A model generated the notes under the pieces. It ran no database searches and was not told where the DNA came from. It was given only the letters and a program-made list of their open reading frames with translations. Below, in pieces: positions 3,840-34,224 of a DNA stretch of 64,000 nt. The translations under genes were made by a program, and so were the position numbers. The stretch comes from a virus. Its lineage: Duplodnaviria > Heunggongvirae > Uroviricota > Caudoviricetes. Where the stretch lies: IMG/VR virus record IMGVR_UViG_3300021400_002728, positions 330,267 through 394,266 of that record. One strand, 5' to 3'. Position 1 is the first letter of the stretch, and every line of letters starts with the position of its first letter.

Positions 3840-3873
3840 ATTATAACATGAAAAAGATGTGATGTAAATAGTT
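3840..3873 (-). promoter_or_regulatory. Sigma-A type promoter for cca
   Basis: AACTATTTACA-17 nt-TATAAT with extended -10 TG. Confidence 0.8.
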
Positions 3874-18163: not shown

Positions 18164-18197
18164 GGCTATTTACATGCAGGTATATAGAAATTATAAT
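18164..18197 (+). promoter_or_regulatory. Sigma-A type promoter with no downstream ORF
   Basis: GGCTATTTACA-17 nt-TATAAT on the + strand. Confidence 0.6.
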
Positions 18198-18327: not shown

Positions 18328-21300
18328 TTAGAATCCAGAATCATTGTGACCATCGCCATCAATTTCTTCTGTCATCATACTAGTCATGGCCTCCATTACG
18401 TCTTCCTCAACATCTTCATCTACATTATCTGTAGAATCATTGTCAGTTACAGTCTTTTTTCTTCTGGTTGCGAAGAAAGCACCTATGCAAAGTACACCAA
18501 GAAGTGAAAGAATTGTAATAGGAAGGATTGGTAAGTTATCACCAGTCTTAGGAGGAATGATAATGATCTTATCGAACATCTTAAGATTGATTGCACAGAT
18601 ACCATCAGATTCCTTCAATGAAGTATCTTCAGTATAATCTGTCTTATCTTCACTAGCTCCATAATAAGGTGAACCCTTAATAGGAATTACAGTGTTGCAA
18701 ATCTTATATCCAAATGGTGCTTTGGTTTCCTTAGCGTAGAATATCTGATTTTCATCATAGGTGATGATGATAAATTCAACTTCACCATTCTCGTTAGTCT
18801 TACCAACGCAATCATTACCATTTATATCCTTAGCAATCTGTGTGCAGTTCTCATCTGTAAAGATTGTAATCTCTGCATTTCTAAGTACATACACATGATT
18901 GTCAAAATCAGACTTGACAAGCTTAACATGAAGTTTCATGCTAGTATCGAATGTCTGTTTCTCATCATTGATGTCAGAGTGTGTTGCAACTCTTACATTA
19001 TTAAGATACATATCCTCGAATACAACTACTTTTCTACCAGCTACAAGTCCAGCATTGAACTTGAACGTAACATTAACTGTTCCAGAAGCAAGTCCATCTT
19101 CACCAATTGTAGAGTTTTCTTCAGTAGGAGTGATTTCTGCACTTGCAGTAATCTTATTACCTTCAGCATCCTTTACGTACTCGTACTCTTCGTCTTCACC
19201 ATATTCTCTCTTGAATACAAGTGTACCTGTTACAGTATACTTCTTTCCAGGAACAAGGTGTTCATAAGAAACGGTATCAATAATAGTCTGCGTCTGAGTA
19301 CCATCTAAGAATACCTGAGTGTTTCCATCCTCATCCTTAACAGTAGTTCTAACTTTAGGAATGTAAATTGTCTGATCTTCATCAGAAATGTCTTCGTGCT
19401 TAGCAACAGCTTCCTTATTTGGCGTACCATCTTTCTTAGCACCAACATATAAGCATTCTTCGAATACTACTAATGTTTTACCTTCAAGACCTGTTGTATC
19501 AAGGGTAAAGATAACTTCTACCTTACCAGAAGATTCTGCAGGTAAGAATCTGGTAACTGCTGTAACGGTCTTACCGTCAATTTCAAGGGCTTTTCCAGTT
19601 TCCTTATCCATTACAATACCAGACATATCATACCATACACCAGGGAGTAACTTGTTATATTCAACAACATCAACAATCTGTACAGTTTCGCCATAAGGTA
19701 CAACCTTTTCACGATATTCTATACCCTTGTTTTCTATTGCTCTTACATAACCGTTTGCTGTAGTACCAATTTCAGGAACGAATGTCCACTGCCACTGATC
19801 ATCGATTTCTGAGTGAGTAGCAACCTTGATTTCATTGTAGTAGCAGTCCTCAAATGCAACTACGTGAGTTCCCTTGAGCGCTGTAGAATCAAATGTAAAT
19901 ACAAGATCTACGTTACCAGAAGCAATCAACTTACCATCACTAATTGTTACCTGAGTATCAGGTAAGTCCTTAGGAATGAATGTCTTTGTAGCAGTAATTC
20001 TGTTGCCATCTTTGTCAAGTATAGGTTCTCCAGTATCAACGTTTACAAGGTAACCTTTGATTGTGTATTCCTTATCTGCCTGCAAACTTACGAATGTAAC
20101 AGTATCGGTAATAGTCTCTTTAGTATTCCAACGTGATACATGATCACCAATAACAGTGTCAATCAAGTGTGTGAAGATTCTAGGAATAAGAATAGTCTGT
20201 TTCTCATCTTCAATGTCTGCGTGAATTGCGTACACATGACTAGGCTCTTCATCAGAGATGCATCTTTCGAATGCAATGATCTGTGTACTCTTGGTAACAT
20301 TGATCTTCTCTTCATCAGAGATACCACGCTCTGTACGAGCCTCTTCTTCAGTGTATTCATTAGTAATAACTCTAGTATCATCATTACCAGATACATCTGT
20401 AGGCTCTACGACAGGATTTCCATCATCATCAACTTCAGGAGCAGTACCAGTATCGGTTACTGTTCTATTAATGTTAAGATGATCTTTGTCAAGATTGTGG
20501 TCAAAATCATGTAACTGATCAGCAGGAATTGTGAATGATACTTCTACATCGCCTTCACCTGTATCAGAAGCTGTGAAAGGAACATCCTGAGTAATAAGCT
20601 CAAGAGTATCTTCAGATTCATTTGTCAAGTGGTAAGGCTCACCAGTACTCTTATCCATCAATACGCACTGCATAATGTATTTCTTACCAGGAACAAGACC
20701 TGTGTAGTGTACATAGTCAGTAACAGTAGTATCTTCCTCAAGAGGAACCACATGAATTTCAGTATGAGATTCTAAGAACTCAGTGTGAATTTCAGGGATA
20801 ACGATGGTCTGCTCAGCATCGTTGATGTCGTTATGATATGCATAGCAATCATTAGGAACAGCAACAGTCTCGTCAGGAACATAAGTGTTATTTGTACCAA
20901 GAAGCATGTACTCATAAACTACGAATGTACCACCATTACGTGCATCTGTCTTGTTGAGGTTGAGCTCGATGTCGAACTCGTCATCAACTGCGATAATACC
21001 TACACAACCATCTTTTCCACATTCGCACTTGTACTCAACTGCAGCACCTGTAGCTACGCTTGCAGGAGACTTGTAAGGAGTATACTGTATAAACTTAGAA
21101 CCATCAGCAAGGTTTACAACCGGCTTTCCAGTATCTTTGTTTATAACGATAGTTACTAATGTGTAATCAGTGTTAGGTGTAATCTTGTTCATGCTTACGG
21201 TATCTTTAATCTTCCAATCGTATGTAGAAGGATCTTCAGCATGGAGATACCAGTCATCACCTGTAGCATTGTTACCACTTATGGTGATTGTGTGTTCTCC

Positions 21301-24300
21301 GGTTTCAGCATCAACAGCAGTAGTATGAAGGTCAGGTACAGTTACCTGCTGCTCTACGTTAGTAAAGTCATCCTCAATGAGAACTTCATGTCCTTCTGTA
21401 TCAAATTCACCGAAGTACAGTCTTTCTTCGAACATGATGGTCTTACCCTTGTACTTAGTTGCATCAATAGTGAGATCGATGTCTACGAGGATAGGCTTGT
21501 CATCAGTACCAAGAAGTAACTGAGTAAAGTCTGTTCCGTTTCCATCAGGATACTGCTTGAAGAAAGCTTCTCCACTATTCTCTACGCCATTGATTGTAGT
21601 AACATAAGGAGTAATTACCTTACCATCAGCGTCACGTTTAACGTCAACAATAACTTTCTTTGTAGCTGTGAACTGCTTACCATCTGCATCGACAATAGGC
21701 TCACCAGTTTCACCATCTACAGCAGCAATTCTTAATGTAAATGTGCTAGGAATGATGTCAGTAATAGTATTGTCTGTGTCTTTAAGATTACTCTTAATAA
21801 CAGTATCAAGTCCTACGTTCTTAATCTCAACAGTATCAGTTATAGTCTGGTTAGGAGCTGCCTGAATCTGTCTATCCTTTGCATTTACTGCTGCTTCTGC
21901 TGCAGGATCTGCAACTGTAGAAACTACAGTGGTTCTGAATGTAGGAAGGTGCACAGTCTGTCTCTCATCATAGATGTTGTTGTGAACAGCATACTTAAAT
22001 TCAGTATTATCACCTTTAGTCATAGACTCGAAGCATACCCATGAAGGATCACTCTCCCAATCCAGTGCAGTTAATACCTGCTTAAATGTAATAGGAATCT
22101 CAATTGTACCATAAGCTCTGCCTGTTACAGGATCAATTGTTGAGTTGTTTGCATCTGGAGTAATTGTTCCAGTTGCTACTACAGGATTTCCTTCAGCGTC
22201 AAGTACAGGCTGTTTGGTCTCCTGATCCATAAGCTCAGCAGTGAATACCCAAGGCTCACCTACTTTAAGATTCTTAAATGTTACAGTATCGTATACAGTT
22301 ACATCTGCATACTCTCTAGATACAACCTTGTAATTAGTTCCTTCATGTCTATTAACAAGATGTGTTTCAATTTCAGGAATAGAAACTGTCTGCATCATAT
22401 CGTTAAGATCTTCATGAAGTGCAATAAGTACTTCGGTAGTACCATCATCGTTGAGATAGTAGTTATCATTTGTTATAGTATCATATCTGATCTGTTTTGC
22501 ACAGTGATGATGATTACGTCTCTCATGATATTTAGATTCATCATAAGAAGTGAATGTTTCTCCACACTGTACACAAGTGTATACTGTATGTCTAGCATCC
22601 ATTTCTGATCCAGGACCAGGAACGTATTTACCATCTGCATGTACGCCAGCATGACCAGGAAGTTCCATATAAACTCTTTCGCATACTACAAGATCACGAT
22701 TAGCGTACTGTCCAGAGTCTATAATGTTGTACTGCATTTCTAAACTACCTTCAGTATCAGTTAAGCTGAAGTTTTTAGTCTCATGAGCTACATAAGGAGT
22801 ATCAAGACCGTTGTTTTTATCAACGACTCTATTACCCTCTTCATCGTAACCAACAAGATATACATAACCTTCAACTCTGACATCGATAGCTTCTGCAAGG
22901 TTACTATAGTCAATTCTATCTCTAAGTATTGCATCATTCTTAATCAAGTTACCATCGAGATCCCAAGATCTACCATTAGGAAGAATGCCTTCTTCTCCAT
23001 CTTCTGACATAGCAGTAGTGTCGATCTGAATCCATCTAATGTTCTCTTCTTCTTCATCTAAGTCGAAGTTGTGACAAGTAATTACAGGACCACTTGCATC
23101 ATATAAGTAAGTCTTTATGTAAACAGTCTCAGCGTCGTTAGGCATGTTAGGAATAATCCAATCCATTATACCAAGATCGCTAAATGTAATCTCACCGTCA
23201 CAAGGTCCCTCAAGTGAGTGCTGTAAGATAGTATTTGCACCATTGTTTTCGTAAACAATATCAGTACCATATACTACATGATCAAGATCTTTGTCAATGA
23301 GAATTGCAACAAGACCAGTTGAACAATCATGTCCATAAATGTCTTTTACAACTGTATCATTACCATTTTCATCAACATAAGTAAGTTTTGCTGTAAATCT
23401 ATAGTTATGTCCATCTCCAAGATTGCTATAAACAATCTTATCATCAATAAGAGTATAACCTACGATTTCACCATCAGCATTATAAACAAGGTTTCCAGTG
23501 TTTTCTGCATTATTAACGAGAGGCATTCCTTCTTCGCCATAAGCGTATCCACCGATACCTGCAACTCTTGTACGAGTAGTTTTGTCTGTTGACTCAGTTG
23601 AAAACTTAATAACTCCTACATACTGAGACTTTTCATCTAAGTACTGGTTATGCTGTTTTAATAAGCTCCAACCCTGTGTACCCATACTCTTATAAAGATC
23701 AACTGCAAATACAAGTTTCTCGCCTTCCTGCATCATAGATGTATCAAGATTGAAATCCTGAATAATGCTTAAGTTGTAAAGAGTATCAATACGGTTGTAA
23801 GTAGGATCATGCTGAGGAGCATATTCCTGCGTAAAGTTACCATCAGCATCACGGAATAATACGTAATTATTGTCAACAACTGTGAATGAACCATGTTCAG
23901 TGACAAATGTACCAGGCATTACACTTTCAAATGTTGTGTTTGCGTTTCTAATAGTATTATAGGTTCTTCCACCTTCAGTATGAGTATCACCAGTAAAGTC
24001 AAGTGTACACATATCAGAAGTATAAATCTTCTCTATAGGATTACCATCTTCATCGCATCTCCAGATATAAGTTATATATCCGTATCTCTGAGTAGTAGTA
24101 AGACCACCAAAGGTAACTGTATCACGAAGTAAGCCATCAGAATCAGGAATAGTAGAGTTAGTCTCTGTTATCGCATCGATAGCTTCTGATTCAATTGTAA
24201 GAGGTACGTCTACACCGATATCCCAGTCGTCAAGATAGAATACAGGATTAGGATTATCATGAATTACTCTAAGAGTAGAACTGATCATATCATAATCTTC

Positions 24301-27300
24301 TGTGTTCCACATAATGGTTCTAACCTGACCATTACCAAGATTTATTTCTTCCTGAGCACCTTCGCCATTCTTAGGATATCCGTATTCTGTAACACGAGGA
24401 ATCTCCTGAATTACGTAAGTACCGGCAAGTAAAGCACCTCTTTTATTAGTAAGATATTTACTGTTAGGCTGTTCAAGGGCAAGCTCACCAAACCAAATAT
24501 TACCGGTTGTAGCGTTCTTAAGATCTTCCTTAGTACCTGTCCAAACTAACTTATTAAGAGTTGTATCAAATGTTACATAACTATCATACTGATTTACATT
24601 ATTAACAGTCTTAGGACGTGCATCCCAGTTTCTAGAATCAAATGTTGAATCGAAATCAAGAACCATTACGTGCTGTTCAATTACATTATAACTACCATCT
24701 GCGTTCTGAATAGGATCACCGTTCTCGTCAGATTCCACAAGAGAAACTAACCAAGGAACATATGCCATAAGTCTACCATCAAGGTTAACTTTCTGCATTC
24801 TGAAGTCACCACGAATAGGTAAGTCACTCCAAGTAAACTGAAATTCCTGAGGAACATAGGTAGGACCATACTGCTTATTAGTAGTTAATCCATTATAACC
24901 ACGAATTGTTCTATCATCTTCTGTATGAGTTTTATAAGCTGAACCAATTTGATGTTTCCACTCAGGCTGAACAACAAAGTAATTAGCAATGTTTTCATTC
25001 CAAGTGTACCATTCATTAGCTCTATCATCGTTACCAAAGTATTGACCTTCCTGACCAGCAATACCGTTTACAGCAGTACCAGCTTCCTTAGCCTGGCAAT
25101 CTTTAGTCCAATCTTTATATGCAGCCATAGCTTGGTCATTCCATACAAAGTGAGGCTGAATACTATTACCATAGCATTCTTTCTCGATGAGCTGACCATT
25201 ATTATCTGCGATATTGATTGTTCTAACCTGTGTATTATAAGACTGATTAATACGAAGCTCATATACTTCATAAGTACCATAAGGCAAATGCTCGATGAAA
25301 CATTCACCATTCTCATCAGTTTCGAGAACTGCAATTACTTCATTAGGTGCAAAATATCTATCCTCAGCATTAGCAAGATCTTCTGTATAAGGATAGCATA
25401 CAGACCAATAAGATCTATTTACGATAGCAAACTGAACATGATTAAGTTTATTAGAACCTTGGTTATGACCTGTAATCTTAGTCTCATCATCAATCTTACG
25501 AATTCTGATATTACCATAGACTGTTTCATTATCCCAAGTATCTTCACCATTATCATCTACAGTGTATAAATCACCCATAGCAATAAGTTCACCAGCAGTA
25601 GCAGTTCCTGCACCACCATTTGATACATTACCACCATTGTGATCATCGCTACCTGTACCTGTATCATGAAGTGTGTAGTAGAAGTAAATGTCACCTCTAT
25701 AAAGCATAGAAGGATTTCCATTTACAGCTGTACGTATTGAATTAAGCTGGCTATTTGTTCTGTAGTTAGCAAAACAGCTTGTACCAAGCTTAGTTGAAGT
25801 ATCATAGTTTTCGCCAACCTGGATAGTAGCATCAGATCTTAACTCACGAATCTCATATTGACCGTAAGGAAGACCATAGAGTGATACGTATCCCTGCTCA
25901 TAACCCTTAGTTAACTCATCTGTAGCAACATTAGACTTCTGATGTGAAGTTAAAATAGCAACTACACAACCAGGATTAATTGCTACATTATCTCTGATTT
26001 CAACATAAGGCTGATCAGAAGTAGGCATTAACTGTGTATACTTATTGAACATCTTAACCTGGTCATCAGATCTGTTAATTACAACGAATCTAATATCATT
26101 CCAAGTTGAATCGCCCTGAGGATGATCTGTAGTAAAGTGATATACACTATCTCTCTTCCAGAATGAAAAACCGTCACGATATACATCGTCAGTATAACGA
26201 CTTGTACCAGTATTATACGGATCATTATGAATAGCTAATGCACTAGAAACAGTATTATGAGGAGTTGAATGATTGATATCAGTTAAATCATAAGTAATAG
26301 AAATGTTATTCCAATAGAAGGAATCATTTGCGTAAATACTTGTACCTTTATTTACTGAATTCCAATTCTGACCAACGCTAATTTCAGCATCACGTCTTAA
26401 CTCAACAACTTCATATGTACCATAAGGAAGACCATAGATAGCAAAATAACCATCTACTTTCGCTCCAGTATGTGTACCAGCTGTAACTGTGCTAGGTCCA
26501 TTATGAGTAGTAAGAATTGCAACTACTTCGCCAGGAGCGATTCTTGCATTCGCATTACCAGTACCAATACCAGCAATTGAAGTACCACCAGGAATGAACT
26601 GTACGTTAGGAACGTTAAGTACAGTATTAGTAGCATTCCAATTAGGATCAACCTGTGATAACTGATTAATATCAGACTGAAGAATTTCAACTTCATATGC
26701 TGATCTATTGATAACTGCAAATCTAATACCGTTAGCATTAGAGTCACCTTCAGTTACCTGTAAGTAATCTTCATCTAACTTATAACCCTGGAAACCATCT
26801 ACAAATGCTTTGTTCTCTGCAATATGATCAGGATTTGAAGTAGGTGTATTATAATTCCAAGTAAAGTGACTCATACTTGAGCTACTATCACCATGATATA
26901 ATTTGTTACCAGCAGTAGTATAGTCAATTGAGAAATAATTACTACCATCCCACATAATACCACTATTATTGGCATAAGTACTATTACCCATTCCGTTTCC
27001 GTCATAAGTCTGGCCAATAAGAGATGTATTATCAGCAGCATCATATTTAAGCTCTACAATGTCATATACACCATAAGGTAAACCATACATTGTAAGATAA
27101 CCTTCAAGACCGTTATGAGTATGTGTAGTTATAACTGCACAAATACGATCTTTACCAATTTCCTGACTATCATTAATTGTTACATAACTGCTATCAACAG
27201 TATTATAGATAGATCTCATCACAACATGATTATTAGATCTATTGATTACAGCAAATCTAATACCATTAAGTGAAGTATTACCTTGAGTATTGCTAAGTGT

Positions 27301-30300
27301 ATCATTAGAATTAGTTAAATCCTTCTTCCACATAGCAAAACCATATCTATAAACTAAATCTTCTGCAGCGCCAAATCTACGAGAATTTATTATTCCGACT
27401 GCATTTACATGACCAGAATAATTATCAAGTCCGATAAGTGTATCACCGTTTTCACCAGTAGTCCAGTTATCTGTAACAACTTGAATCTGAGTATTTATTG
27501 TATAGCCAGTAGGTGCCTTGATTTCTACAAATCTATACTCACTTGAATAAGGAAACTTAAGATCAGTCTGTGCATAACCATTTGAATTTGTAGTGATAAC
27601 TACTGGCTGTCCATCTGATAATACTGGATAGAGCGTAGTTCCAAATGATGTAGTACCTGCAACGCCAAACCCATCAAGTGTAGATACAGAACTTACGCCA
27701 CTTCCTAATGATAATACTTTTGTACCATTTGGATTATTCATAGTATAAGAGAAGAATGAATTTCCATATGTATTCTGTGTTGTAGTAGTAAATAACTGGA
27801 ACTGCGCACCGTCATATGTACTACTACCTTCAGGAATACCTAAAATAGTGTTTGAAGTATATCCTAGTACAGCAAAGTCCATATCTGCCTTATAAATTCC
27901 AAGAGGATACCATACTTCACCCTCAACAGTACGGATTATATCTTCATCTTGTTCATATGTATAGAGTAAGTCATCTCCACCATATTTATAGTCGCTGTTT
28001 ACATATCCTGTTTCTGTATCATATACTAAAATATCATTTTCATAAAATTTTTTATATGCAGCAGTAACATTTGTACCTCCGCTTGAATAAGTATTTGGTC
28101 TATAATACAATTTATATATAGATGTATTTCTTATCAATCCAGTCTGTTGTGCATTAGTTGGAACCTTTGTTTCTTGAATAGTATAATAACCATATGTCCA
28201 ACAATATATATTATTTATCAAAGGATGTTTTAATGGTTCATCGCCTCTAACAAAATAATACGGATCTTCAAAGTCAACTTTACCATATTCATCGGTCTTA
28301 AATACACTAGTTCGTAACACAGTATCTGTTGCATTACCATTTGCATCTAATTCATACATTGTTATAGTATATTCTGCATTTTCAGGCCTTGTACCTGCAT
28401 CCCAAACTGGCTGTCCTGTTTTATCGCTAATTTTGACAAATTGTAAGTGAGTAGGGTCAGTAAGTGGTGTATTATTTAATACAGCAGTAGCAGTTTCGCC
28501 TCCGCCAATATTCATAGATACTGTACCAGTTTCGCCAGCATTATAGCCTCTACCAGTTTTAGTCTCCTTAATATACAATGTATGTCCTTGATATAAATTG
28601 TATAGTAATGTTGCAGTAGAAGTACTATTTCCATTTGCATCCACAGTAAATATTACGTCCTGATTTGAAATAGCATCTTTTACAGGATTAGAAAAATTAG
28701 AGTCAGAATATACTGCAAATGTTGCGCCTTCAAGAGAAAAATATGAATTCCCTCGTACTAAATACTGGAATTGTTCGTCGCATTGTTTGCGTAAATTTAG
28801 ATATATATAATTCCAGCACCATGCATCTGCAGAACCTGCATATATCTGATTCTGTGTACACTGTTCATATTTTTGTGACAATCCACCTGAAGTTAATAAT
28901 CCAGTTAAATCACCAACATTTCGCTTACCTTTATACGGTGTAAGTACTACAACATGTTTTTTTGCTTCAGCTGCTGCTGCACCTGCTGCATTTGATTTTG
29001 CAGTATTCTCATATGTACTCATATCACTAGTAGATAAATACAATGAATTATTTTCATAAGTGTAATCACCTTCCCATGTTTGTACTGTTGTATCATCTGT
29101 TTTTTTGGTAAGTTTCCAGTGAGTCTTAATTGTCAGTCTATGTTCAGTCTTACCATCAGGAAGAGCTCCATTAACCCATTTTCCAGATCCATTTAAATGC
29201 TCAATACTAGTAGATTTAATTGTTGTATCTACAGTATATGTATCAGTATGTTCTGTCCATGTACGTGCTTTAAAGTTATCATTACTAAATAATACGCTGA
29301 AAACTACATTTGTAGTATTACCATTATCTGAAACAGTGGCTGTAGCCTGATAATTTACTGTAGGTCCTGTGAGGACAAATGCATAGTGTGACTGTGTATT
29401 ATTACCATGTGCTTCGTGACCTTCACAATCAACATCAATTGTTCTTCCATTAAAAATTTGTTCAAAAACATTATTATTTCCTGAAATAGTTACATAGCCA
29501 TAACCAGGGTTGTCTACGTCAGGAGTAAATGAACAGGTTCCAGTATAAGTTCCAGATATAGTGTTCATTACATCTTTAGTAATTTCTACATTTGTAGCAG
29601 TTCCTTGTAATACAAAATCAAATGGCTCTGATTCTTCCTCTTCTGGAATATAGATTTCAACTTTACCGTTTTCATCTATTGAGTAGTCATACCCAGTCTG
29701 TTCAACAAATGCCTTTATGAATGGATTTGCGTCCAAATCAGATAAATCTCTTTCAGGCTCTATGACTTCTTCAATTATAGTAGGATTATAATCACCATCA
29801 AATAATATAGAAGACTCAGTTATTCCAGCTGAATAAAGACCAGTAAAAATAGCAGTAGCATCAGAAGTATAATCAGCTACTACATAGTAATCTGCATCAT
29901 AGTTTGAAATAGATTTCTTACTACCATCTGAATTAGCAGCACCAATAGTAATTACCGCATCAATACAACCAGGAATAAACTTAGTTGCAGAAATATTATA
30001 GTTACCTGCAGCACCAATTACTACAATACCATTATTTATTGCTTCCTGAATTACATCTTTAACAATAGCATTCTTTTCAACGTCAGAACCAACTAATGAT
30101 AAGTTGATAATCTTAACGTTATTTGCTATTGCTAATTTGATACCTGAATAAACAGATGCAGCATCTGTTGTAGATCCGTTAAATACTTTAATAGACATTA
30201 CTTTAGCATCAGGATTTTCACTTTTTATGAGTTCTAACATCCTTGAACCATGCCCATTAGAGTCATTAACATCATCGCCAACAACAGAGAATTTAACATC

Positions 30301-31431
30301 TGCATTGTCTGATCCAGTATCAATAAGAGCAATGTAATCAGAATAATCAGTAGTTTCAGTATTTTCAACTTCCTCATTTAACTGAGCGAGAGCATCATTA
30401 CCATCGTTAAGATCTTCAAGATCAGCTACGTCTTCATTATTCTCATCAGTTGCGATAGAAATTACCTTTGACAAGTCAGAGATAGAATCTACCTTATCAA
30501 CATAGTAAGAATAAACGTATCTTGCTTCCTCAACAGACGAACACTCAATAATATAGACGTCGTCGAAATTAGATACTACGTTTGTGTTCTTTGTGAAAAC
30601 AGAAGAGTCACTAGTCTTTACAAGTAAATCAGAAGTCTCTACAAGAGATTCATCAATTTCAGTAAAGTAATGATCGAAAACTACGATAGGATTAACTTTA
30701 ATAGTCATCTCATCAGATGCAACTTCTTCGTCATCTACAATTAACTTACCAACAATTGTGTATTCACCAGCTTTGTCGAAAGTAATTGCTGCGCCAGTTG
30801 CAGACTTAGTTTCGATATTGACTCCATCACCAGAAAATTCGAATGTATATTCTACATCCTTAGTCTCTTCGTCAATAGTTACCTTTGCAACTACTTCTGC
30901 TTCGATTTCAAGTGTGTCACCCTCACTTACAGTTTTGTCACTAGGTAAAGTAACGCTGTACTCATATTCAGGTTCAGCAGTCTCTTCAACTTCTTCTTCA
31001 TCAATTGGATCTTCATCAACGATTTCATCTTCCTCAGTAGGTTCAGCATCCTCGTCAGTATTGTCCTCGTCTTCATCATCAACTGATATCACAGTGTCAG
31101 GGTCGGTTCCATCAGTATCAGAACCGTTATCAATGTTTGGCGGAGTATCTACATCAGGATTATCTTGATCCTGTGCATCCTCGTCGCCAGGAATTGCGTC
31201 TACATTTTCATCATTAGACTCATCTTCAACAATGATAGTATACGAGTCGTTATCCTCCCCGTCAACATGTACTCCATTTTCATCTACAACAATAGTTGTA
31301 GTTTCTACAGGAGTATTGTCAACATCATCATCTGCAAAAGCAGTAACAGGACAAGCAGATACTACCATTAAGAGAGAAAGAAACCCAGAAAGGATTCTTG
31401 CCCCAAGCGAATTAGTTTTAATTCTTCTCAT
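18328..31431 (-). CDS. Giant cell-wall-anchored adhesin: S8 peptidase + SpaA-like isopeptide domains + VaFE (T-Q ester) repeats
   Basis: Signal peptide (VTAFA), acidic stalk, IALIDTG/NGHGS/AAGN/YTSDA subtilase motifs, EIKAPTGY and ETKAPFGY, repeated V(V/A)FE...HxDxxDxxQT, then PPKTG + TM + RRKK. Confidence 0.85.
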   Translation of the reverse strand: MRRIKTNSLGARILSGFLSLLMVVSACPVTAFADDDVDNTPVETTTIVVDENGVHVDGEDNDSYTIIVEDESNDENVDAIPGDEDAQDQDNPDVDTPPNIDNGSDTDGTDPDTVISVDDEDEDNTDEDAEPTEEDEIVDEDPIDEEEVEETAEPEYEYSVTLPSDKTVSEGDTLEIEAEVVAKVTIDEETKDVEYTFEFSGDGVNIETKSATGAAITFDKAGEYTIVGKLIVDDEEVASDEMTIKVNPIVVFDHYFTEIDESLVETSDLLVKTSDSSVFTKNTNVVSNFDDVYIIECSSVEEARYVYSYYVDKVDSISDLSKVISIATDENNEDVADLEDLNDGNDALAQLNEEVENTETTDYSDYIALIDTGSDNADVKFSVVGDDVNDSNGHGSRMLELIKSENPDAKVMSIKVFNGSTTDAASVYSGIKLAIANNVKIINLSLVGSDVEKNAIVKDVIQEAINNGIVVIGAAGNYNISATKFIPGCIDAVITIGAANSDGSKKSISNYDADYYVVADYTSDATAIFTGLYSAGITESSILFDGDYNPTIIEEVIEPERDLSDLDANPFIKAFVEQTGYDYSIDENGKVEIYIPEEEESEPFDFVLQGTATNVEITKDVMNTISGTYTGTCSFTPDVDNPGYGYVTISGNNNVFEQIFNGRTIDVDCEGHEAHGNNTQSHYAFVLTGPTVNYQATATVSDNGNTTNVVFSVLFSNDNFKARTWTEHTDTYTVDTTIKSTSIEHLNGSGKWVNGALPDGKTEHRLTIKTHWKLTKKTDDTTVQTWEGDYTYENNSLYLSTSDMSTYENTAKSNAAGAAAAEAKKHVVVLTPYKGKRNVGDLTGLLTSGGLSQKYEQCTQNQIYAGSADAWCWNYIYLNLRKQCDEQFQYLVRGNSYFSLEGATFAVYSDSNFSNPVKDAISNQDVIFTVDANGNSTSTATLLYNLYQGHTLYIKETKTGRGYNAGETGTVSMNIGGGETATAVLNNTPLTDPTHLQFVKISDKTGQPVWDAGTRPENAEYTITMYELDANGNATDTVLRTSVFKTDEYGKVDFEDPYYFVRGDEPLKHPLINNIYCWTYGYYTIQETKVPTNAQQTGLIRNTSIYKLYYRPNTYSSGGTNVTAAYKKFYENDILVYDTETGYVNSDYKYGGDDLLYTYEQDEDIIRTVEGEVWYPLGIYKADMDFAVLGYTSNTILGIPEGSSTYDGAQFQLFTTTTQNTYGNSFFSYTMNNPNGTKVLSLGSGVSSVSTLDGFGVAGTTSFGTTLYPVLSDGQPVVITTNSNGYAQTDLKFPYSSEYRFVEIKAPTGYTINTQIQVVTDNWTTGENGDTLIGLDNYSGHVNAVGIINSRRFGAAEDLVYRYGFAMWKKDLTNSNDTLSNTQGNTSLNGIRFAVINRSNNHVVMRSIYNTVDSSYVTINDSQEIGKDRICAVITTHTHNGLEGYLTMYGLPYGVYDIVELKYDAADNTSLIGQTYDGNGMGNSTYANNSGIMWDGSNYFSIDYTTAGNKLYHGDSSSSMSHFTWNYNTPTSNPDHIAENKAFVDGFQGYKLDEDYLQVTEGDSNANGIRFAVINRSAYEVEILQSDINQLSQVDPNWNATNTVLNVPNVQFIPGGTSIAGIGTGNANARIAPGEVVAILTTHNGPSTVTAGTHTGAKVDGYFAIYGLPYGTYEVVELRRDAEISVGQNWNSVNKGTSIYANDSFYWNNISITYDLTDINHSTPHNTVSSALAIHNDPYNTGTSRYTDDVYRDGFSFWKRDSVYHFTTDHPQGDSTWNDIRFVVINRSDDQVKMFNKYTQLMPTSDQPYVEIRDNVAINPGCVVAILTSHQKSNVATDELTKGYEQGYVSLYGLPYGQYEIRELRSDATIQVGENYDTSTKLGTSCFANYRTNSQLNSIRTAVNGNPSMLYRGDIYFYYTLHDTGTGSDDHNGGNVSNGGAGTATAGELIAMGDLYTVDDNGEDTWDNETVYGNIRIRKIDDETKITGHNQGSNKLNHVQFAIVNRSYWSVCYPYTEDLANAEDRYFAPNEVIAVLETDENGECFIEHLPYGTYEVYELRINQSYNTQVRTINIADNNGQLIEKECYGNSIQPHFVWNDQAMAAYKDWTKDCQAKEAGTAVNGIAGQEGQYFGNDDRANEWYTWNENIANYFVVQPEWKHQIGSAYKTHTEDDRTIRGYNGLTTNKQYGPTYVPQEFQFTWSDLPIRGDFRMQKVNLDGRLMAYVPWLVSLVESDENGDPIQNADGSYNVIEQHVMVLDFDSTFDSRNWDARPKTVNNVNQYDSYVTFDTTLNKLVWTGTKEDLKNATTGNIWFGELALEQPNSKYLTNKRGALLAGTYVIQEIPRVTEYGYPKNGEGAQEEINLGNGQVRTIMWNTEDYDMISSTLRVIHDNPNPVFYLDDWDIGVDVPLTIESEAIDAITETNSTIPDSDGLLRDTVTFGGLTTTQRYGYITYIWRCDEDGNPIEKIYTSDMCTLDFTGDTHTEGGRTYNTIRNANTTFESVMPGTFVTEHGSFTVVDNNYVLFRDADGNFTQEYAPQHDPTYNRIDTLYNLSIIQDFNLDTSMMQEGEKLVFAVDLYKSMGTQGWSLLKQHNQYLDEKSQYVGVIKFSTESTDKTTRTRVAGIGGYAYGEEGMPLVNNAENTGNLVYNADGEIVGYTLIDDKIVYSNLGDGHNYRFTAKLTYVDENGNDTVVKDIYGHDCSTGLVAILIDKDLDHVVYGTDIVYENNGANTILQHSLEGPCDGEITFSDLGIMDWIIPNMPNDAETVYIKTYLYDASGPVITCHNFDLDEEEENIRWIQIDTTAMSEDGEEGILPNGRSWDLDGNLIKNDAILRDRIDYSNLAEAIDVRVEGYVYLVGYDEEGNRVVDKNNGLDTPYVAHETKNFSLTDTEGSLEMQYNIIDSGQYANRDLVVCERVYMELPGHAGVHADGKYVPGPGSEMDARHTVYTCVQCGETFTSYDESKYHERRNHHHCAKQIRYDTITNDNYYLNDDGTTEVLIALHEDLNDMMQTVSIPEIETHLVNRHEGTNYKVVSREYADVTVYDTVTFKNLKVGEPWVFTAELMDQETKQPVLDAEGNPVVATGTITPDANNSTIDPVTGRAYGTIEIPITFKQVLTALDWESDPSWVCFESMTKGDNTEFKYAVHNNIYDERQTVHLPTFRTTVVSTVADPAAEAAVNAKDRQIQAAPNQTITDTVEIKNVGLDTVIKSNLKDTDNTITDIIPSTFTLRIAAVDGETGEPIVDADGKQFTATKKVIVDVKRDADGKVITPYVTTINGVENSGEAFFKQYPDGNGTDFTQLLLGTDDKPILVDIDLTIDATKYKGKTIMFEERLYFGEFDTEGHEVLIEDDFTNVEQQVTVPDLHTTAVDAETGEHTITISGNNATGDDWYLHAEDPSTYDWKIKDTVSMNKITPNTDYTLVTIVINKDTGKPVVNLADGSKFIQYTPYKSPASVATGAAVEYKCECGKDGCVGIIAVDDEFDIELNLNKTDARNGGTFVVYEYMLLGTNNTYVPDETVAVPNDCYAYHNDINDAEQTIVIPEIHTEFLESHTEIHVVPLEEDTTVTDYVHYTGLVPGKKYIMQCVLMDKSTGEPYHLTNESEDTLELITQDVPFTASDTGEGDVEVSFTIPADQLHDFDHNLDKDHLNINRTVTDTGTAPEVDDDGNPVVEPTDVSGNDDTRVITNEYTEEEARTERGISDEEKINVTKSTQIIAFERCISDEEPSHVYAIHADIEDEKQTILIPRIFTHLIDTVIGDHVSRWNTKETITDTVTFVSLQADKEYTIKGYLVNVDTGEPILDKDGNRITATKTFIPKDLPDTQVTISDGKLIASGNVDLVFTFDSTALKGTHVVAFEDCYYNEIKVATHSEIDDQWQWTFVPEIGTTANGYVRAIENKGIEYREKVVPYGETVQIVDVVEYNKLLPGVWYDMSGIVMDKETGKALEIDGKTVTAVTRFLPAESSGKVEVIFTLDTTGLEGKTLVVFEECLYVGAKKDGTPNKEAVAKHEDISDEDQTIYIPKVRTTVKDEDGNTQVFLDGTQTQTIIDTVSYEHLVPGKKYTVTGTLVFKREYGEDEEYEYVKDAEGNKITASAEITPTEENSTIGEDGLASGTVNVTFKFNAGLVAGRKVVVFEDMYLNNVRVATHSDINDEKQTFDTSMKLHVKLVKSDFDNHVYVLRNAEITIFTDENCTQIAKDINGNDCVGKTNENGEVEFIIITYDENQIFYAKETKAPFGYKICNTVIPIKGSPYYGASEDKTDYTEDTSLKESDGICAINLKMFDKIIIIPPKTGDNLPILPITILSLLGVLCIGAFFATRRKKTVTDNDSTDNVDEDVEEDVMEAMTSMMTEEIDGDGHNDSGF

Positions 31432-31520
31432 CTTAATGCTCCTTTATTTTTAATTTGCATACTAAAAAGACTATGTGTCGCTGATAACACATAGCCTGGT
31501 GACCTAATTAATGTGTTCAT
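31428..31520 (-). CDS. 30-aa leader ORF overlapping the adhesin start
   Basis: GGGAGG SD 10 nt upstream; MNTLIRSPGYVLSATHSLFSMQIKNKGALR; its TGA overlaps the adhesin ATG (ATGA). Confidence 0.45.
   Translation of the reverse strand: MNTLIRSPGYVLSATHSLFSMQIKNKGALR
31464..31496 (-). terminator. Terminator in the adhesin leader
   Basis: GGCTATGTGT-TATCAGCG-ACACATAGTC followed by TTTTT. Confidence 0.7.
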
Positions 31521-31560
31521 TTTTCAGCATCCTCCCAAATTTGTGATTTTTTCACATTTA

Positions 31561-31579
31561 TAATAATAAATAGCTCTTC
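31561..31579 (-). promoter_or_regulatory. Element-specific box (GAAGAGCTATTTATTATTA) upstream of the adhesin
   Basis: One mismatch to the consensus. Confidence 0.65.
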
Positions 31580-31593
31580 ATCGAAGGACCATT

Positions 31594-31628
31594 ATTATAT
31601 CATATTTATATTAGAGTTGTAAATAGTT
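31594..31628 (-). promoter_or_regulatory. Sigma-A type promoter towards the adhesin
   Basis: AACTATTTACA-18 nt-TATAAT with extended TG. Confidence 0.65.
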
Positions 31629-31669
31629 TTTTCAAAAAACAGTTACAATCTTTTATAAGAACCATTGTA

Positions 31670-31687
31670 TATTCTTAAATAGCCTTT
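31670..31687 (-). promoter_or_regulatory. Variant element-specific box (AAAGGCTATTTAAGAATA)
   Basis: GCTATTTAA core in the same orientation as the other copies. Confidence 0.4.
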
Positions 31688-31722: not shown

Positions 31723-31756
31723 ATATATTTACAAATCATAACATTCATGATATAAT
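31723..31756 (+). promoter_or_regulatory. Sigma-A type orphan promoter (+), first of a tandem pair
   Basis: TATTTACA-17 nt-TATAAT with extended TG. Confidence 0.7.
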
Positions 31757-31830
31757 TATCTCATAATAAATATTACGGATGTAACCCCGGTAATACTCCG
31801 TTAAAAAATTTAATAAAGAAATTTTTAAGA

Positions 31831-31864
31831 AACTATATACAAATCGAACATTTCATGATATAAT
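31831..31864 (+). promoter_or_regulatory. Sigma-A type orphan promoter (+), second of the tandem pair
   Basis: AACTATATACA-17 nt-TATAAT; spacer resembles that of the first promoter, suggesting duplication. Confidence 0.6.
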
Positions 31865-32003
31865 ATATCTATAATAAATAATTAGTTCCTTGAAAAATCT
31901 ATATTCTAAAAATTATCCTACCCAATAATTTTTAGTTTAATGAGAAATCATATTACCCAATGAAACTCATTTACAGCATCTAATAACTTAATATTCACAA
32001 TTA

Positions 32004-32040
32004 AATAAGATGCTATAACTCGATAGCATCTTATTATTTT
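32004..32040 (+). terminator. Terminator for the + strand non-coding transcript
   Basis: AATAAGATGCTA-loop-TAGCATCTTATT followed by ATTTTT. Confidence 0.65.
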
Positions 32041-32059
32041 TGGGCTCATTTTTAGGAAT

Positions 32060-32092
32060 AAAATAAAAGAGCCTCAACTTTCGTCAAGGCTC
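32060..32092 (-). terminator. Terminator after the HHDA lipoprotein gene
   Basis: GAGCCTTGAC-GAAA-GTTGAGGCTC followed by TTTTATTTT. Confidence 0.85.
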
Positions 32093-32118
32093 ATAGTTCT
32101 TTGAAAATTTATTTTATT

Positions 32119-32841
32119 TTATTTCTTTTCTTCACCACATTCAGAACAAACTGTATGAGTATGAGGAACTTCTACTTCAACTTCTTCATCGTAAGCATCA
32201 ACTGTTTCTGTATGAGTCTGAGCGTCATGATGAATGGTTTTATAAGTAGTATCATGATGTACTGTAGAAGTATGTGGAATCTGTACAGTAACTTGTTCGT
32301 CCCAAGCAGGTGTATCAACTACTGTTTCATCCCAAGCAGGTGTATCTTCTACCCAAACACGAATATACTTAGATATATAACCACCATCTGGTGTATATTC
32401 GCGCTCTTCTTGATATTCATAATGACCAGTAGCATCATGATGAACAATTTTATAAGTAGCATCATGATGGATTGTTTGTGTCTCTGTAGTATATGTGGTT
32501 ACTGTTTCATCCCATGCAGCTTTATCAACAACTTGTTCATCGTAAGCTTCTTTATCAACAACTGTAGTAGTTTCGGCATCATGATGTACAGTCTGTATCT
32601 CTGTAGTATAATATGTTTCTTCTACCCAATTATGTTCGCAAACTTCCTGTGTAGATTCAGAGGTCTCCTGAGTAGCTTCAGAAGAATCCTGAGTTTCAGT
32701 TTCGTCTTCAACTGTCTGCTCGATCTGAGTAGGATTAGTCAAAGGGTCATTAGATAAATTATGTGCACCGCATCCAGTTAAAATTCCAAGTGAAATTGCT
32801 GTAACGATTGTGATTGTAACTACAAGACTTTTGTTTTTCAT
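32119..32841 (-). CDS. Lipoprotein with HHDA / A(W/Y)DE repeats closed by a CxH...CxxC site
   Basis: Lipobox LTGC; CEHNW...5x HHD(A/T) and 5x A(W/Y)DE...HTVCSECG. Confidence 0.8.
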   Translation of the reverse strand: MKNKSLVVTITIVTAISLGILTGCGAHNLSNDPLTNPTQIEQTVEDETETQDSSEATQETSESTQEVCEHNWVEETYYTTEIQTVHHDAETTTVVDKEAYDEQVVDKAAWDETVTTYTTETQTIHHDATYKIVHHDATGHYEYQEEREYTPDGGYISKYIRVWVEDTPAWDETVVDTPAWDEQVTVQIPHTSTVHHDTTYKTIHHDAQTHTETVDAYDEEVEVEVPHTHTVCSECGEEKK

Positions 32842-33038
32842 GGTTTATACCTCCAGATATAAATTTGTGCTAAAGTTTTACCTTTAGCTGCCATTTAGTA
32901 AATCAAGTTCTCCAGCACTACCACTATTGTGATCACTGGATTTTTATCTGACTTACTATTTGAAGTATTTACTTACTAAAATACAGGTAATTTCTTACCT
33001 TCCACCTTTTATAGAACTATTATTTTATTTCTAATTAT

Positions 33039-33072
33039 ATTATAACAAGTTCTATGAAGAATGTAAATAGTT
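33039..33072 (-). promoter_or_regulatory. Sigma-A type promoter for the lipoprotein (about 190-nt leader)
   Basis: AACTATTTACA-17 nt-TATAAT with extended TG and an A-tract UP element. Confidence 0.8.
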
Positions 33073-33173
33073 TTTTTGAAAAAAGTTTCAAATTTTTTAT
33101 AAAAATATTTTCATTCTTCTAATCATCTAACTTCGATTTACCCGATCGAAATCATTTGATTTATTATGATTAT

Positions 33174-33207
33174 ATTATAACATGAATTTTTGTATTTGTA
33201 AATAGTT
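33174..33207 (-). promoter_or_regulatory. Sigma-A type tandem promoter
   Basis: AACTATTTACA-17 nt-TATAAT; upstream A-tracts resemble those of the 33039 promoter. Confidence 0.75.
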
Positions 33208-33348
33208 TTTTGAAAAATTTTTTAAATTTTTTTGTATTTATCTATTAACGAATTTTTCAATTATTTACTATTCGCTTCCTCCTTAAAACTTTTTAATCGT
33301 TAAAGGAATACATTTACCCAGATGAATTTCTTTATTGATTATGATATA

Positions 33349-33382
33349 ATTATATCAAGTAAAGCTAAATTTGTAAATAGTA
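33349..33382 (-). promoter_or_regulatory. Sigma-A type tandem promoter
   Basis: TACTATTTACA-17 nt-TATAAT with extended TG. Confidence 0.75.
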
Positions 33383-33513: not shown

Positions 33514-34224
33514 CTAGAACCATTTATCCTTTAGCACATCATCAGGATCTTTACCTACTATATCATAATCAGGAAGAAGTAGAACTTTATTATCAGGTGT
33601 GATAGTAAATCTACCTACTTTCATTCGATCAACAATAGGGTTAGATTTTCTGCTATTTTTTGCTTTTTCAAAATATTCCATCCATAATGTCTTCTTACTA
33701 TATTCTGTACCTGTGCTATTAAAGATGTCGTCATCAGTAAGTTCTCTCGGTTCTTGAGGAACATCAGACTGAAGTACTGAACTGATTTCATCGTCATCAG
33801 GTGGAGTATATTTCGGAATGACTGCCTGTGGTTGCTGTTGTTTTTGCTGTACAGGTTGCTGAACAACTTGAGGTTGAGGAGCAGGTTGCTGAACAGACTG
33901 TTGTACAACGGGCTGAACTTGAGGTTGTTCAACGGGTCTAGAGACTGGTTGAAGCTTTTGATGTTCAGGTTCATGAGTAACAGGTTGCAAAATAGGTTTT
34001 TGTACCTGAGGTTGTACAATAGGTTGAACAGGTGTTTGTTCCACAGGTTTTTGTTTTATTTTTAACTTAATTACCTTTGGCGTCGGTTCTAAAACCGGGC
34101 TTTCAGGTGGAATTATTTTTATGCACTGATTTTCAGGCGGAATAACTCTTATAGAAGGCTGAGGCGGAGTACTATATACAATATCCTGTTCTTGCAGTGA
34201 TTGTATAAAGTCCTGTAATGCCAT
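33514..34224 (-). CDS. P/Q-rich hypothetical protein
   Basis: GGAG SD; low-complexity QPVVQQ core and small C-terminal globular region. Confidence 0.7.
   Translation of the reverse strand: MALQDFIQSLQEQDIVYSTPPQPSIRVIPPENQCIKIIPPESPVLEPTPKVIKLKIKQKPVEQTPVQPIVQPQVQKPILQPVTHEPEHQKLQPVSRPVEQPQVQPVVQQSVQQPAPQPQVVQQPVQQKQQQPQAVIPKYTPPDDDEISSVLQSDVPQEPRELTDDDIFNSTGTEYSKKTLWMEYFEKAKNSRKSNPIVDRMKVGRFTITPDNKVLLLPDYDIVGKDPDDVLKDKWF

Follow-up and report, generated by a model that had tools for sequence, protein, structure and literature searches.

Hairpins with an invariant loop around a lipoprotein gene of a 394-kb phage-like element most likely belong to an undescribed RNA control circuit

Four stem-loops that share the same loop are placed around a lipoprotein gene of a huge phage-like element, beside conserved opposing promoters, and most likely form an RNA control circuit that has not been described before. 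The source record (IMGVR_UViG_3300021400_002728) is a circular phage-like element of 394 kb that encodes 39 tRNAs and a tmRNA, and it is classed as a virus having terminal repeats; the Pfam phage hallmarks Terminase_6N and HK97 capsid had no match in this genome. The window, meaning the whole stretch of 64,000 nucleotides analysed here, carries a conjugation-like gene set and a 374-aa protein (679-1803) with weak likeness to Replic_Relax, located 30 kb from the hairpins. The lipoprotein gene (240 aa; 32119..32841, minus strand), followed by its intrinsic terminator (32069..32092, minus), has homologues in giant elements related to this one, as well as in integrative elements with Tn916-type Xis and Int. 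Downstream, the module borders a unit consisting of the sigma-A-type promoter Pm0 (31594-31623, minus) and a second-type 'box' promoter (31555-31579, minus), which together span 31555..31623, a leader ORF and a gene for a 4367-aa adhesin, the leader of which also contains a terminator. The lipoproteins encoded by hairpin-flanked genes may be exclusion-type proteins.

The original prediction placed TACCC-loop hairpins at four positions, and all four were found there. Hairpin A, on the minus strand, has its core at 33302-33333, is extendable to 33293-33341 and comprises 12 stem positions with two mismatches; its sense-RNA loop is CUGGGUAA, and in relatives this loop is invariant and A-U pairs of the stem are replaced by G-C. 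Hairpin B, also on the minus strand, has a core of 6 bp at 33132-33150, extendable to 33121-33161, with the sense-RNA loop CGGGUAA and two G-U pairs on the sense strand. Hairpins C and D follow one another in the interval from the lipoprotein terminator to the adhesin promoter region and may form on either strand, the plus-strand forms being designated C' and D'. Hairpin C (31939-31971), a 4-bp core with an outer stem, is conserved in 12 loci, and its loop, listed at these coordinates as ATTACCCA, reads UGGGUAAU on the sense strand and AUUACCCA on the plus strand. Hairpin D (31906-31935) has a perfect stem of 11 bp and a loop, listed as CCTACCCA, that reads UGGGUAGG on the sense strand and CCUACCCA on the plus strand; among relatives, four to five unrelated stem sequences carry the same loop. 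GGGTA is found on one strand for all copies, whatever the promoter direction. A TAACCCC-loop variant had also been proposed, and a hairpin of this kind is indeed present after the plus-strand promoter P1+ (31775-31801, plus), but it is kept in two close relatives only, is replaced by an unrelated hairpin in another, and is no firm or consistent member of the family.

As judged from the window alone and for an unspecified motif, the chance statistics are weak and only suggestive. TACCC occurs six times in 1660 nt against 0.56 expected, and under the strict rule it is found in three loops, compared to a mean of 0.05 and a maximum of two in 1000 dinucleotide shuffles; some GC-rich 5-mer reaches three loops in 13% of shuffles. 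Genome-wide, TACCC is non-coding at just 17 sites, four of them at the module. At the level of sequence, the comparative evidence for the hairpins is decisive. Each of the four was found again in 5-12 related elements with the loop GGGTA(R) invariant on the gene-sense (window minus) strand, the GGGTA itself being identical in every copy. The first five stem positions are paired at 95% in 26 distinct copies, versus 27-36% with a shifted partner. Among 16 distinct copies, compensatory changes were observed in 7/7 stem pairs, and the covariation score was 0.618 versus 0.183 in shuffles (0/500 as high) and 0.06-0.21 in slid controls, in lineages with flanks only ~55% identical. These values were obtained from loop-anchored alignments, because MAFFT/RNAalifold of the C-D region could not align the replaced stems of D. 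The earlier statement that the stems differ around a conserved loop is thus borne out. The same cannot be said for the suggestion that a G-T pair favours folding on the plus strand, as all seven wobble pairs in the core 7 bp of the 16 distinct copies lie on the minus (gene-sense) strand and none on the plus, and only the outer stem of hairpin A favours plus-strand folding.

Six strong sigma-A-type promoters were predicted in the region (minus strand at 31623, 33067, 33202 and 33377; plus strand at 31728 and 31836), belonging to a family of approximately 70 such promoters across the 394-kb element. Pm3 (33349..33377, minus), with TTTACA, a 17-nt spacing and a TG-extended TATAAT, is conserved in the related loci L001, L118, L120, L122 and L137. 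The sigma-A-type Pm2 (33174..33202, minus) is also conserved in relatives, and Pm1 (33039..33067, minus) is the proximal promoter for the 240-aa lipoprotein gene. The promoters had been described as convergent orphans; they are convergent and conserved in relatives, but Pm3 and Pm2 are distal members of tandem promoter pairs before lipoprotein genes and hence not orphans. Pm3 gives the appearance of an orphan because this genome is devoid of the lipoprotein gene that relatives have at that place. The Pm3 transcript is predicted to begin with hairpin A and the Pm2 transcript with hairpin B, the predicted first transcribed bases taking part in the outer stems of both; in hairpin A, the outer stem pairs with them. 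The distance from the -10 box to GGGUA is 30-31 nt for both promoters in the window, L001, L118 and L120. Furthermore, a strong SD-like AAGGAGG (33273..33284, minus) has no usable start codon and is conserved in relatives, likewise without an ORF; a STAB-SD-like stabilising element and the remnant of a leader are both conceivable.

On the opposite strand, the convergent sigma-A-type promoter P2+ (31836..31864, plus) consists of TATACA, a 17-nt spacing and a TG-extended TATAAT. It has a counterpart in eight loci, with a perfect TATAAT, a 10/12 promoter match and a distance of 54-69 nt from the D loop, and the spacers differ among them. The second plus-strand promoter, P1+ (31728..31756, plus), is present in L118, L120 and L122 and absent from L001, L117 and L123. 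With a start placed according to the -10 box at 31859-31864, P2+ would give rise to a predicted convergent small RNA (31872..32042, plus) with a single-stranded 5' end followed by D', C' and a terminator. This 171-nt RNA is predicted to fold into D', C' and the terminator (MFE -28.6, z = -4.86) and to display two (Y)UACCCA loops. The plus-strand intrinsic terminator (32004..32035), a 13-bp stem followed by a T-run, is restricted to the window and L140-type relatives and was not found in L001, L118 or L120. The boxA-like sequence GTTCCTTGAAAAA is located at 31885..31897 with a second copy at 32096-32108; both copies are on the plus strand, and this 12-mer has no further copy in 394 kb. It strikingly resembles the boxA of Firmicutes rRNA operons, but in L122 and L144 its reverse complement makes up the upstream portion of box-type promoters, which leaves the rrn boxA reading as one candidate only.

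The best reading of these data, which we put forward tentatively, is that an antisense small RNA pairs loop-to-loop with the sense GGGUA hairpins. Hairpins A and B would be the 5' ends of long transcripts from the distal promoters Pm3 and Pm2, while the opposite strand of C and D would be transcribed from the convergent promoter in most relatives. The terminated small RNA of ~170 nt would pair over 6-8 bp, loop to loop, with GGGUA hairpins, in cis with any read-through transcript running from the lipoprotein gene towards the adhesin gene and in trans with the 5' leaders A and B. Such pairing would tune or insulate the expression of lipoprotein genes and of the regulated genes downstream. The support in silico comprises covarying hairpins, promoters, a terminator and loops that are complementary; that both RNAs are synthesised, that they pair and that the pairing has an effect is what we infer. 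A regulator RNA should have its own opposite-strand promoter and a defined 3' end, which are predicted here as P2+ and the terminator at 32004-32035. The loops of the left and right groups had been said to be complementary, and the UACCC(A) loops of C'/D' do match the GGGUA(A) loops of A/B over 6-8 bp, at -8 to -11 kcal/mol as a loop-loop duplex score. Extended pairing was significant for C' with leader A in the window (z = -4.2) and for D' with leader B in L001 (z = -2.3). The kissing-loop proposal of the original prediction is thus strengthened by conserved opposing promoters with varying spacers, the terminator, the fold (z = -4.9) and the fixed distance of A and B from their promoters, but it is weakened by L118, L120 and L122, in which extended small RNA-leader pairing was not significant.

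There are additional observations against antisense pairing. The loops never co-vary and are simply invariant, so a third-party reader fits equally well. L144, L124, L129 and L125 keep C and/or D without a recognisable antisense promoter, while L117 and L123 have the antisense promoter together with C/D, yet neither A nor B. Since all seven core wobble pairs are on the sense strand, antisense C and D are the weaker hairpins, and the plus-strand terminator is missing from L001, L118 and L120, as already mentioned. No consistent YUNR U-turn motif was detected; among the loops, just the CUGG that hairpin A has in the window and in L001 conforms, and CCGG, CGGG, UUAC and CUAC do not.

Counter-transcript control by convergent promoters is known from Gram-positive transfer elements, for example with Anti-Q/Qs of pCF10, RNAIII of pIP501 and in pT181. 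The arrangement studied here is similar to Anti-Q/Qs (convergent prgX/prgQ promoters), RNAIII, RNAI of pT181 and CopA/CopT of R1 in its convergent promoters, in a short structured RNA with its own terminator (predicted here), in loops complementary to those of sense-leader hairpins, and in its placement before transfer/adhesin genes of a conjugation-type module. It differs from them in that pairing partners are found not just opposite the small RNA but also, as A and B, at a distance of 1.2-1.4 kb where other transcripts have their 5' ends, and in that the loop is the same in all copies and relatives and is not specificity-determining. Moreover, there is no YUNR motif, no evident terminator/antiterminator alternative in the targets and no sequence similarity to these systems.

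Somewhat less likely is the reading that the sense hairpins alone are functional and that a protein, or RNA polymerase itself, recognises their GGGUA(R) loop, similarly to nut, put and canT. Their role could be promoter-proximal processive antitermination, as for lambda nut boxB, HK022 put and Tn916 canT, an RNA processing or stability signal, or 5' stabilisation against RNase J; the convergent promoter would then cause transcriptional interference only, or be incidental. Such a reader would fit four loops that are on the same strand and invariant in diverged relatives despite replaced stems, as well as core-stem wobble pairs found exclusively on the sense strand and the retention of C and D where the antisense promoter is not seen. 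It would also fit the position of A and B, which have 5'-terminal stems at a fixed 30-31 nt from the -10 box, with terminators downstream (that of the lipoprotein gene and one in the adhesin leader). The order promoter-hairpin-terminator expected of antitermination is seen for A and B; C and D, however, are situated behind the lipoprotein terminator and lack a convincing upstream sense promoter, and therefore sense RNA would reach them by read-through only. In addition, the hairpins match no Rfam family, PrgU-like and NusG/LoaP-like proteins were not found in the genome, and no binding protein accompanies the motif. The boxA-like 12-mer on the plus strand is antisense to the GGGUA hairpins and would fit a plus-strand reading only.

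The closest parallels to such a sense-strand signal differ in size and setting. Like HK022 put and the lambda nut boxA/boxB, hairpins A and B directly follow promoters and have terminators downstream. Tn916 canT is a cis-acting processive antiterminator RNA of 340-450 nt with a complex fold (PMC11658703), and the conceptually related conAn2 of pLS20 is 260-600 nt long and also of complex fold (PMC8191782); the units here are single hairpins of ~45 nt or a pair spanning ~75 nt. Similarly to canT, they would represent non-coding, orientation-specific structured RNA in a conjugative element, and in integrative relatives C and D are found upstream of Tn916-type xis and int, the same place that canT occupies in Tn916 (PMC11658703). 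An 8-mer, TGGGTAGG, is found in the canT-equivalent region of a Tn1549-type element, but there is no alignable similarity to canT beyond it, and Tn916 itself has AATGAGTATGG at that spot. C and D follow a terminator and not a promoter, and antitermination is a candidate role here. Concerning RNA stability, Bacillus mRNA stabilisers of the 5' stem-loop or SD-like type include the ermC and aprE leaders, the cryIIIA STAB-SD and the early RNA of phage SP82. Hairpins A and B resemble them in starting a few bases from the predicted 5' end, and A is followed by a perfect SD without a start codon. Those stabilisers, however, need no particular loop, whereas the loop here is invariant and also present at C/D, away from a 5' end.

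An unlikely alternative is that the hairpins act as single-stranded DNA, namely as nick or recognition sites for an HUH Rep or relaxase, as sites at which a primase starts (CTA or TTA occurs in the plus-strand loops) or as recombination sites at the ends of lipoprotein-gene cassettes exchanged between integrative elements and the giant element. Rolling-circle and CRESS origins are characterised by a conserved loop whose stem is free to vary. The module resembles the origin hairpins of rolling-circle replicons and CRESS-DNA viruses, at which an HUH Rep nicks a nonanucleotide loop, as well as relaxase oriT sites, in the invariant loop, free stem and strict orientation, with all copies on one strand irrespective of promoter direction. 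It is also similar to them in having loop-joined chimeras: L140 carries a chimeric hairpin whose 5' arm is as in the window and whose 3' arm is as in L001, the junction being in the loop, and in L139 homology stops 8 nt past the D loop. Furthermore, integrative relatives have a gene for an HUH Rep (Rep_OBD with SF3 helicase; 3603-4910 in L139 and 845-2095 in L117) no more than 1.3 kb from the module, the window has its conjugation-like genes and Replic_Relax-like protein, and in some contexts the hairpins remain without promoters. On the other hand, neither an HUH Rep nor a Pfam relaxase was found in the 394-kb genome (PF01719, PF03432 and the L117 Rep gave no match), and GC skew is uniformly negative with no switch, so the origin proposed in the original prediction gained no signal in its support. 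The orientation of the Rep gene to the hairpins is not fixed: in L117 and L123 it is upstream and divergent, whereas in L139 and L125 it shares their strand, being downstream in L139 and upstream in L125. The hairpins, in contrast, are found after the lipoprotein gene in every case. Were a nickase active, four direct copies in 1.7 kb would not be stable, the loop matches no verifiable nick site, and the absent lipoprotein gene was not lost through hairpin-hairpin recombination. The exact spacing of two copies, A and B, from their promoters and the first transcribed bases in the stem indicate RNA. An ssoA-type single-strand origin, which carries CS-6 (TAGCGT) in its terminal loop together with an RSB, finds no support from the loops, as every loop read has GGGTA/TACCC and none has TAGCGT.

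In a more specific form, which we regard as highly improbable taken as a whole, the invariant loop would serve as a site of nicking or recombination on single strands, and mobile lipoprotein-gene cassettes would be bounded by the hairpins in the layout hairpin - gene - hairpin - gene - hairpin pair. Integrative elements of gut Firmicutes and the 394-kb phage-like element would exchange such cassettes in an integron-like or rolling-circle-like manner, with recognition specific to the loop and not to the stem bases, and the chimeric hairpins of L140 and L139, joined in or beside the loop, would be footprints of such events. Least probable of all is that the hairpins are repeat-derived with no function of their own and are kept through linkage to promoters and terminators, since a loose TCRW/WYGA stem pattern suggesting common descent, the weak single-window statistics and the loss of one of C/D in each integrative relative are opposed by compensatory change at each of the seven stem positions, with the loop kept invariant, within flanks so diverged.

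Concerning distribution and identity, the hairpins gave no Rfam match at the gathering threshold or at E <= 10, and blastn of the region against plasmid and phage collections returned no match. The exact hairpin-C 18-mer had 10 matches in 185,000 species genomes, one of which was real (a Lachnospiraceae MAG), and none in viral contigs; the hairpin-C 15-mer was present in 1/401 sampled Lachnospiraceae genomes. A loose promoter plus GGGTAAA pattern was discarded, its matches in viral contigs being almost all due to chance. The lipoprotein-based locus search of metagenome contigs found nothing, and the three-part pattern search yielded L144 as the sole new locus. CRISPR-repeat-like RNA, tRNA mimicry, CsrA GGA sites and anti-SD pairing were rejected on the basis of variable stems and loops off consensus. 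A take-off site like that of T4 gene 60 was likewise set aside; GGG is followed by UAA/UAG stop codons, but no ORF enters any hairpin.

If the loop were a DNA site, a new cassette-exchange mechanism would be indicated. If antisense pairing with the sense hairpins proves correct, the GGGUAR-loop hairpin and its convergent small RNA with complementary loops would constitute an undescribed RNA motif family, common to huge phage-like conjugative elements and to integrative elements of gut Clostridia. There may also be a connection to canT, the antiterminator RNA of Tn916-type elements that occupies the same position and has yet to be explained. The family would be located where strongly expressed lipoprotein genes meet tightly gated ones, such as that of the 4367-aa adhesin or xis/int, and it would thus offer a simple, testable handle on how neighbouring transcription units are insulated or coupled in such elements.

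Hairpins A (core 33302-33333, wider stem 33293-33341), B (core 33132-33150, wider stem 33121-33161), C (31939-31971) and D (31906-31935) were all found where the original prediction had placed them. Its claim that the loop is conserved while the stems differ also held, as in the relatives GGGTA is always found in the loop, on stems that have been modified or exchanged altogether; the loop TGGGTA(A/G)G of hairpin D sits on five or more stem sequences unrelated to one another. Judged from the window alone, the motif is only suggestive: TACCC falls in loops more often than in all 1000 shuffles, but in 13% of shuffles some GC-rich 5-mer attains the same loop count. Across the genome, TACCC shows a strong strand bias (132 on plus vs 35 for its complement), mostly a coding effect. 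Two extra non-coding TACCC sites with short flanking complementarity (genome positions 124130 and 112097-112113, plus coordinates) lie between tRNA genes and may be weak additional members of the hairpin family, or chance.

Homology to the flanking ORF and the lipoprotein led to related loci, which form three groups. The first comprises giant elements of 240-364 kb with the same gene order (L001, L118/119, L120/121, L122, L137) and the second short contigs, namely L117, where the module of tandem promoters, lipoprotein gene(s) and hairpins is followed downstream by an adhesin gene, L123, which ends in the conserved adhesin leader, and the rearranged L140. The third includes integrative elements with an FtsK-like ATPase and the lipoprotein (L124, L125, L129, L139, L144), Tn916-type Xis and Int being found in L124 and L125. 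L002, a more distant relative, has neither the lipoprotein module nor the hairpins. The hairpins recur at equivalent places in every module-bearing locus, with GGGTA in the loop on the gene-sense (minus) strand. Across 26 distinct copies, 95% of cells at stem positions 1-5 are paired, vs 27-36% with a shifted partner. When 16 distinct copies whose loops are 8 nt long were aligned without gaps, 7/7 pairs changed on both sides, and the covariation score was 0.618 vs 0.183 in shuffles (0/500 as high) and 0.06-0.21 in slid controls, so that the covariation among related elements to which the original prediction had looked is strong. Because the stems covary with GGGTA constant in the loop, these comparisons indicate a hairpin with a sequence-specific loop under selection, while a double-stranded protein site is unlikely since the arms vary freely. 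The element is rare, its exact hairpin-C sequence occurring in 1 of 185,579 species-representative genomes and 1 of 401 sampled genomes of that genome's family (Lachnospiraceae).

The window forms the final 64 kb of one contig of 394,266 bp (G+C 32%). This contig is recorded as a virus with terminal repeats and is probably circular, as its ends share an overlap of ~100 bp. The minus strand holds nearly all genes, including every one of the 39 tRNA genes and the tmRNA; the tRNA block occupies 104.9-125.2 kb of the genome, and one tRNA, with the anticodon UUA, would decode UAA. No match in the genome was obtained with the Pfam models for terminase and the HK97 capsid. The window encodes conjugation-type functions: three ATPases (VirB4-like, VirB11-like and ParA-like), proteins resembling TcpE and SSB, a cell-wall hydrolase, a signal peptidase and a 374-aa protein weakly matching Replic_Relax. 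The hairpin/promoter region encloses the gene of a 240-aa lipoprotein (32119-32841, minus) and is bordered by that of a 4367-aa secreted adhesin (18328-31431, minus) and by a 236-aa ORF (33514-34224, minus). A 30-codon leader ORF (31428-31520, minus), kept in L001, L117, L118, L120, L122, and L123, spans a terminator hairpin (31468-31497) and ends in an ATGA overlapping the adhesin start.

Six promoters lie within 1.8 kb; in each, AAAACTA stands upstream of a TTTACA or TATACA hexamer, which a spacer of 17-18 nt separates from a TG-extended TATAAT. The promoter family (AAAACTA-TTTACA, 17 nt with TG, TATAAT, then often ATCATAATAAAT) has ~70 copies genome-wide, nearly all on the minus strand and usually 20-40 nt ahead of an SD and start codon; minus-strand copies in the window are at 3868, 27963 (questionable), 31623, 33067, 33202, 33377, 51086 and 54805. 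Good plus-strand copies number only four genome-wide, three of them in the window (31728, 31836, 18169). The one at 18169-18197 aims into the 3' end of the adhesin gene, and thus each of the two surface-protein genes has a convergent promoter opposing its 3' end. Another conserved box (GAAGAGCTATTTAAT and an AT-rich TATAAT-like end) is found only on the minus strand, in the window at 31555-31579, 31662-31686, 2420, 18124, 34940, 37617, 46520, 52119, 57496 and 62606. One copy lies ~24 nt ahead of a tRNA gene, between many copies and the RBS lie a GTGAAAAAT stretch and a hairpin resembling a terminator, and the same box precedes xis in integrative relatives; it has the look of a further class of promoter, with attenuators in the leader.

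The promoters had been described as orphans, which the relatives contradict. There, the module runs from Pm3 (in the window 33349-33377, minus) through hairpin A, an SD-like box, a further promoter and lipoprotein gene 1 to Pm2 (33174-33202, minus) and hairpin B, and then through Pm1 (33039-33067, minus), lipoprotein gene 2 and terminator(s) to hairpins C and D, beyond which the adhesin gene has its promoter region or, in integrative elements, xis and int have theirs. Given this order, the right-hand GGGUA hairpins each belong to the distal promoter of a tandem pair before the lipoprotein genes. Both lipoprotein gene 1 and the promoter proximal to it are absent from the window, whose sequence picks up in a conserved stretch upstream of Pm2, and Pm3 looks orphan because of this loss. 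The missing gene (33205-33300 vs L118 1130-2140) is present in five relatives between hairpin A and Pm2, and as the junction falls in repeated sequence upstream of promoters, a deletion between promoter repeats is suggested. For hairpins A and B, GGGUA begins 30-31 nt past the -10 box in all relatives checked; since their outer stems pair with the first transcribed bases, both are predicted to be 5'-terminal stem-loops of long transcripts.

Concerning the strand that folds, the core 7 bp contain seven wobble pairs, every one of them a G-U on the gene-sense strand and not on plus, and the wider stems of B, C and D share this tendency. The wider stem of A is reversed, its conserved sense-strand A-C mismatch being a would-be G-U on plus, so the G-T pair in the 33302 stem proposed to favor plus-strand folding agrees with the outer stem of A but not with the core. 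The hairpin copies are not independent, hence only a weak lean toward sense-strand folding, and the pattern would be compatible with use of both strands, as in sense/antisense pairs. Opposite C and D, eight loci have a perfect-TATAAT promoter at a distance of 54-69 nt from the D loop, with conserved hexamers and differing spacers. In the window, P2+ (31836-31864) is followed on plus by a single-stranded stretch, hairpins D' and C' (UACCC loops) and a 13-bp terminator with a T-run, and the predicted 171-nt RNA folds at -28.6 kcal/mol (z = -4.86). Its loops can pair over a computed 6-8 bp with those of A and B, in line with the complementarity of up to 7 nt noted earlier. GTTCYTTGAAAA, the core of the Firmicutes/Mollicutes rRNA-operon boxA, has only two copies in the 394-kb genome, which flank the small-RNA unit (31885-31897 and 32096-32108, plus).

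The structure and conservation of the hairpins are solid on these comparisons; their mechanism is unproven. We tentatively consider, at somewhat less than an even chance, that an antisense small RNA would pair loop-to-loop with the sense GGGUA hairpins. Such a model gives a role to every conserved part (the promoters that oppose each other, the terminator, the loops that complement each other, and A and B lying at 5' ends) and has close precedents in Gram-positive transfer elements. The kissing-loop pairs originally proposed gain support from the promoters and the terminator; however, the loops are invariant rather than co-varying, and more extended pairing reaches significance only between C' and leader A (window) and between D' and leader B (L001). 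Furthermore, C and D are kept without a visible antisense promoter in L144, L124, L129 and L125, L117 and L123 have the small-RNA unit and no A or B, and the plus-strand terminator is absent from several relatives.

It is possible, though we think it less likely, that a protein or RNA polymerase reads the sense-strand loops for antitermination, processing or stability, which would account for loop invariance, the common strand and the fixed distance from the promoter. The position also matches canT, the cis-acting antiterminator RNA of Tn916 between orf8 and xis (PMC11658703), but there is no real sequence similarity (the Tn1549-type canT region has TGGGTAGG, Tn916 does not), C and D sit behind a terminator, and no candidate reader protein was found in the genome. 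A perfect 20-nt boxA-like sequence lies ~119-140 nt past the orf8 stop in L143, the Tn916-like copy of pCF10; this 20-mer is sense-oriented and sits on the 5' border of the canT fragment as published. In L118 (3395-3435; equivalents in L122 and L137), the lipoprotein terminator is followed by another sense terminator, which has a 19-bp stem and recalls the pLS20 long-stem terminators, reported to resist processive antitermination (PMC10325885).

That the hairpins act as DNA sites is improbable, as chimeric hairpins in L140 and L139 and the HUH Rep genes adjoining the module in integrative relatives are countered by the lack of any HUH Rep/relaxase-type enzyme found in this genome, the differing Rep orientation, the four copies present and the tie of A and B to promoters. 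The L140 chimera (1560-1600) joins a window-type 5' arm inside the conserved loop to an L001-type 3' arm, losing the stem, and the contig runs on into an inverted piece of coding sequence; at the L139 chimera (3340-3380), also a D hairpin, homology to other loci stops 8 nt past the loop. Reps with an HUH origin-binding domain (Rep_OBD / REP_ORF2-G2P) and SF3 helicase are encoded at L117 845-2095 (minus), L139 3603-4910 (plus) and L125 4488-5921 (plus), a fusion that in the integrative relatives has the domain layout of CRESS-DNA virus Reps; there the Rep genes adjoin the FtsK-like ATPase and lipoprotein.

No Rfam family matches the hairpin region, and by sequence the element falls outside every described family. 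In its working, it would be most like the counter-transcript systems of Gram-positive plasmids, or promoter-proximal antiterminator RNAs.
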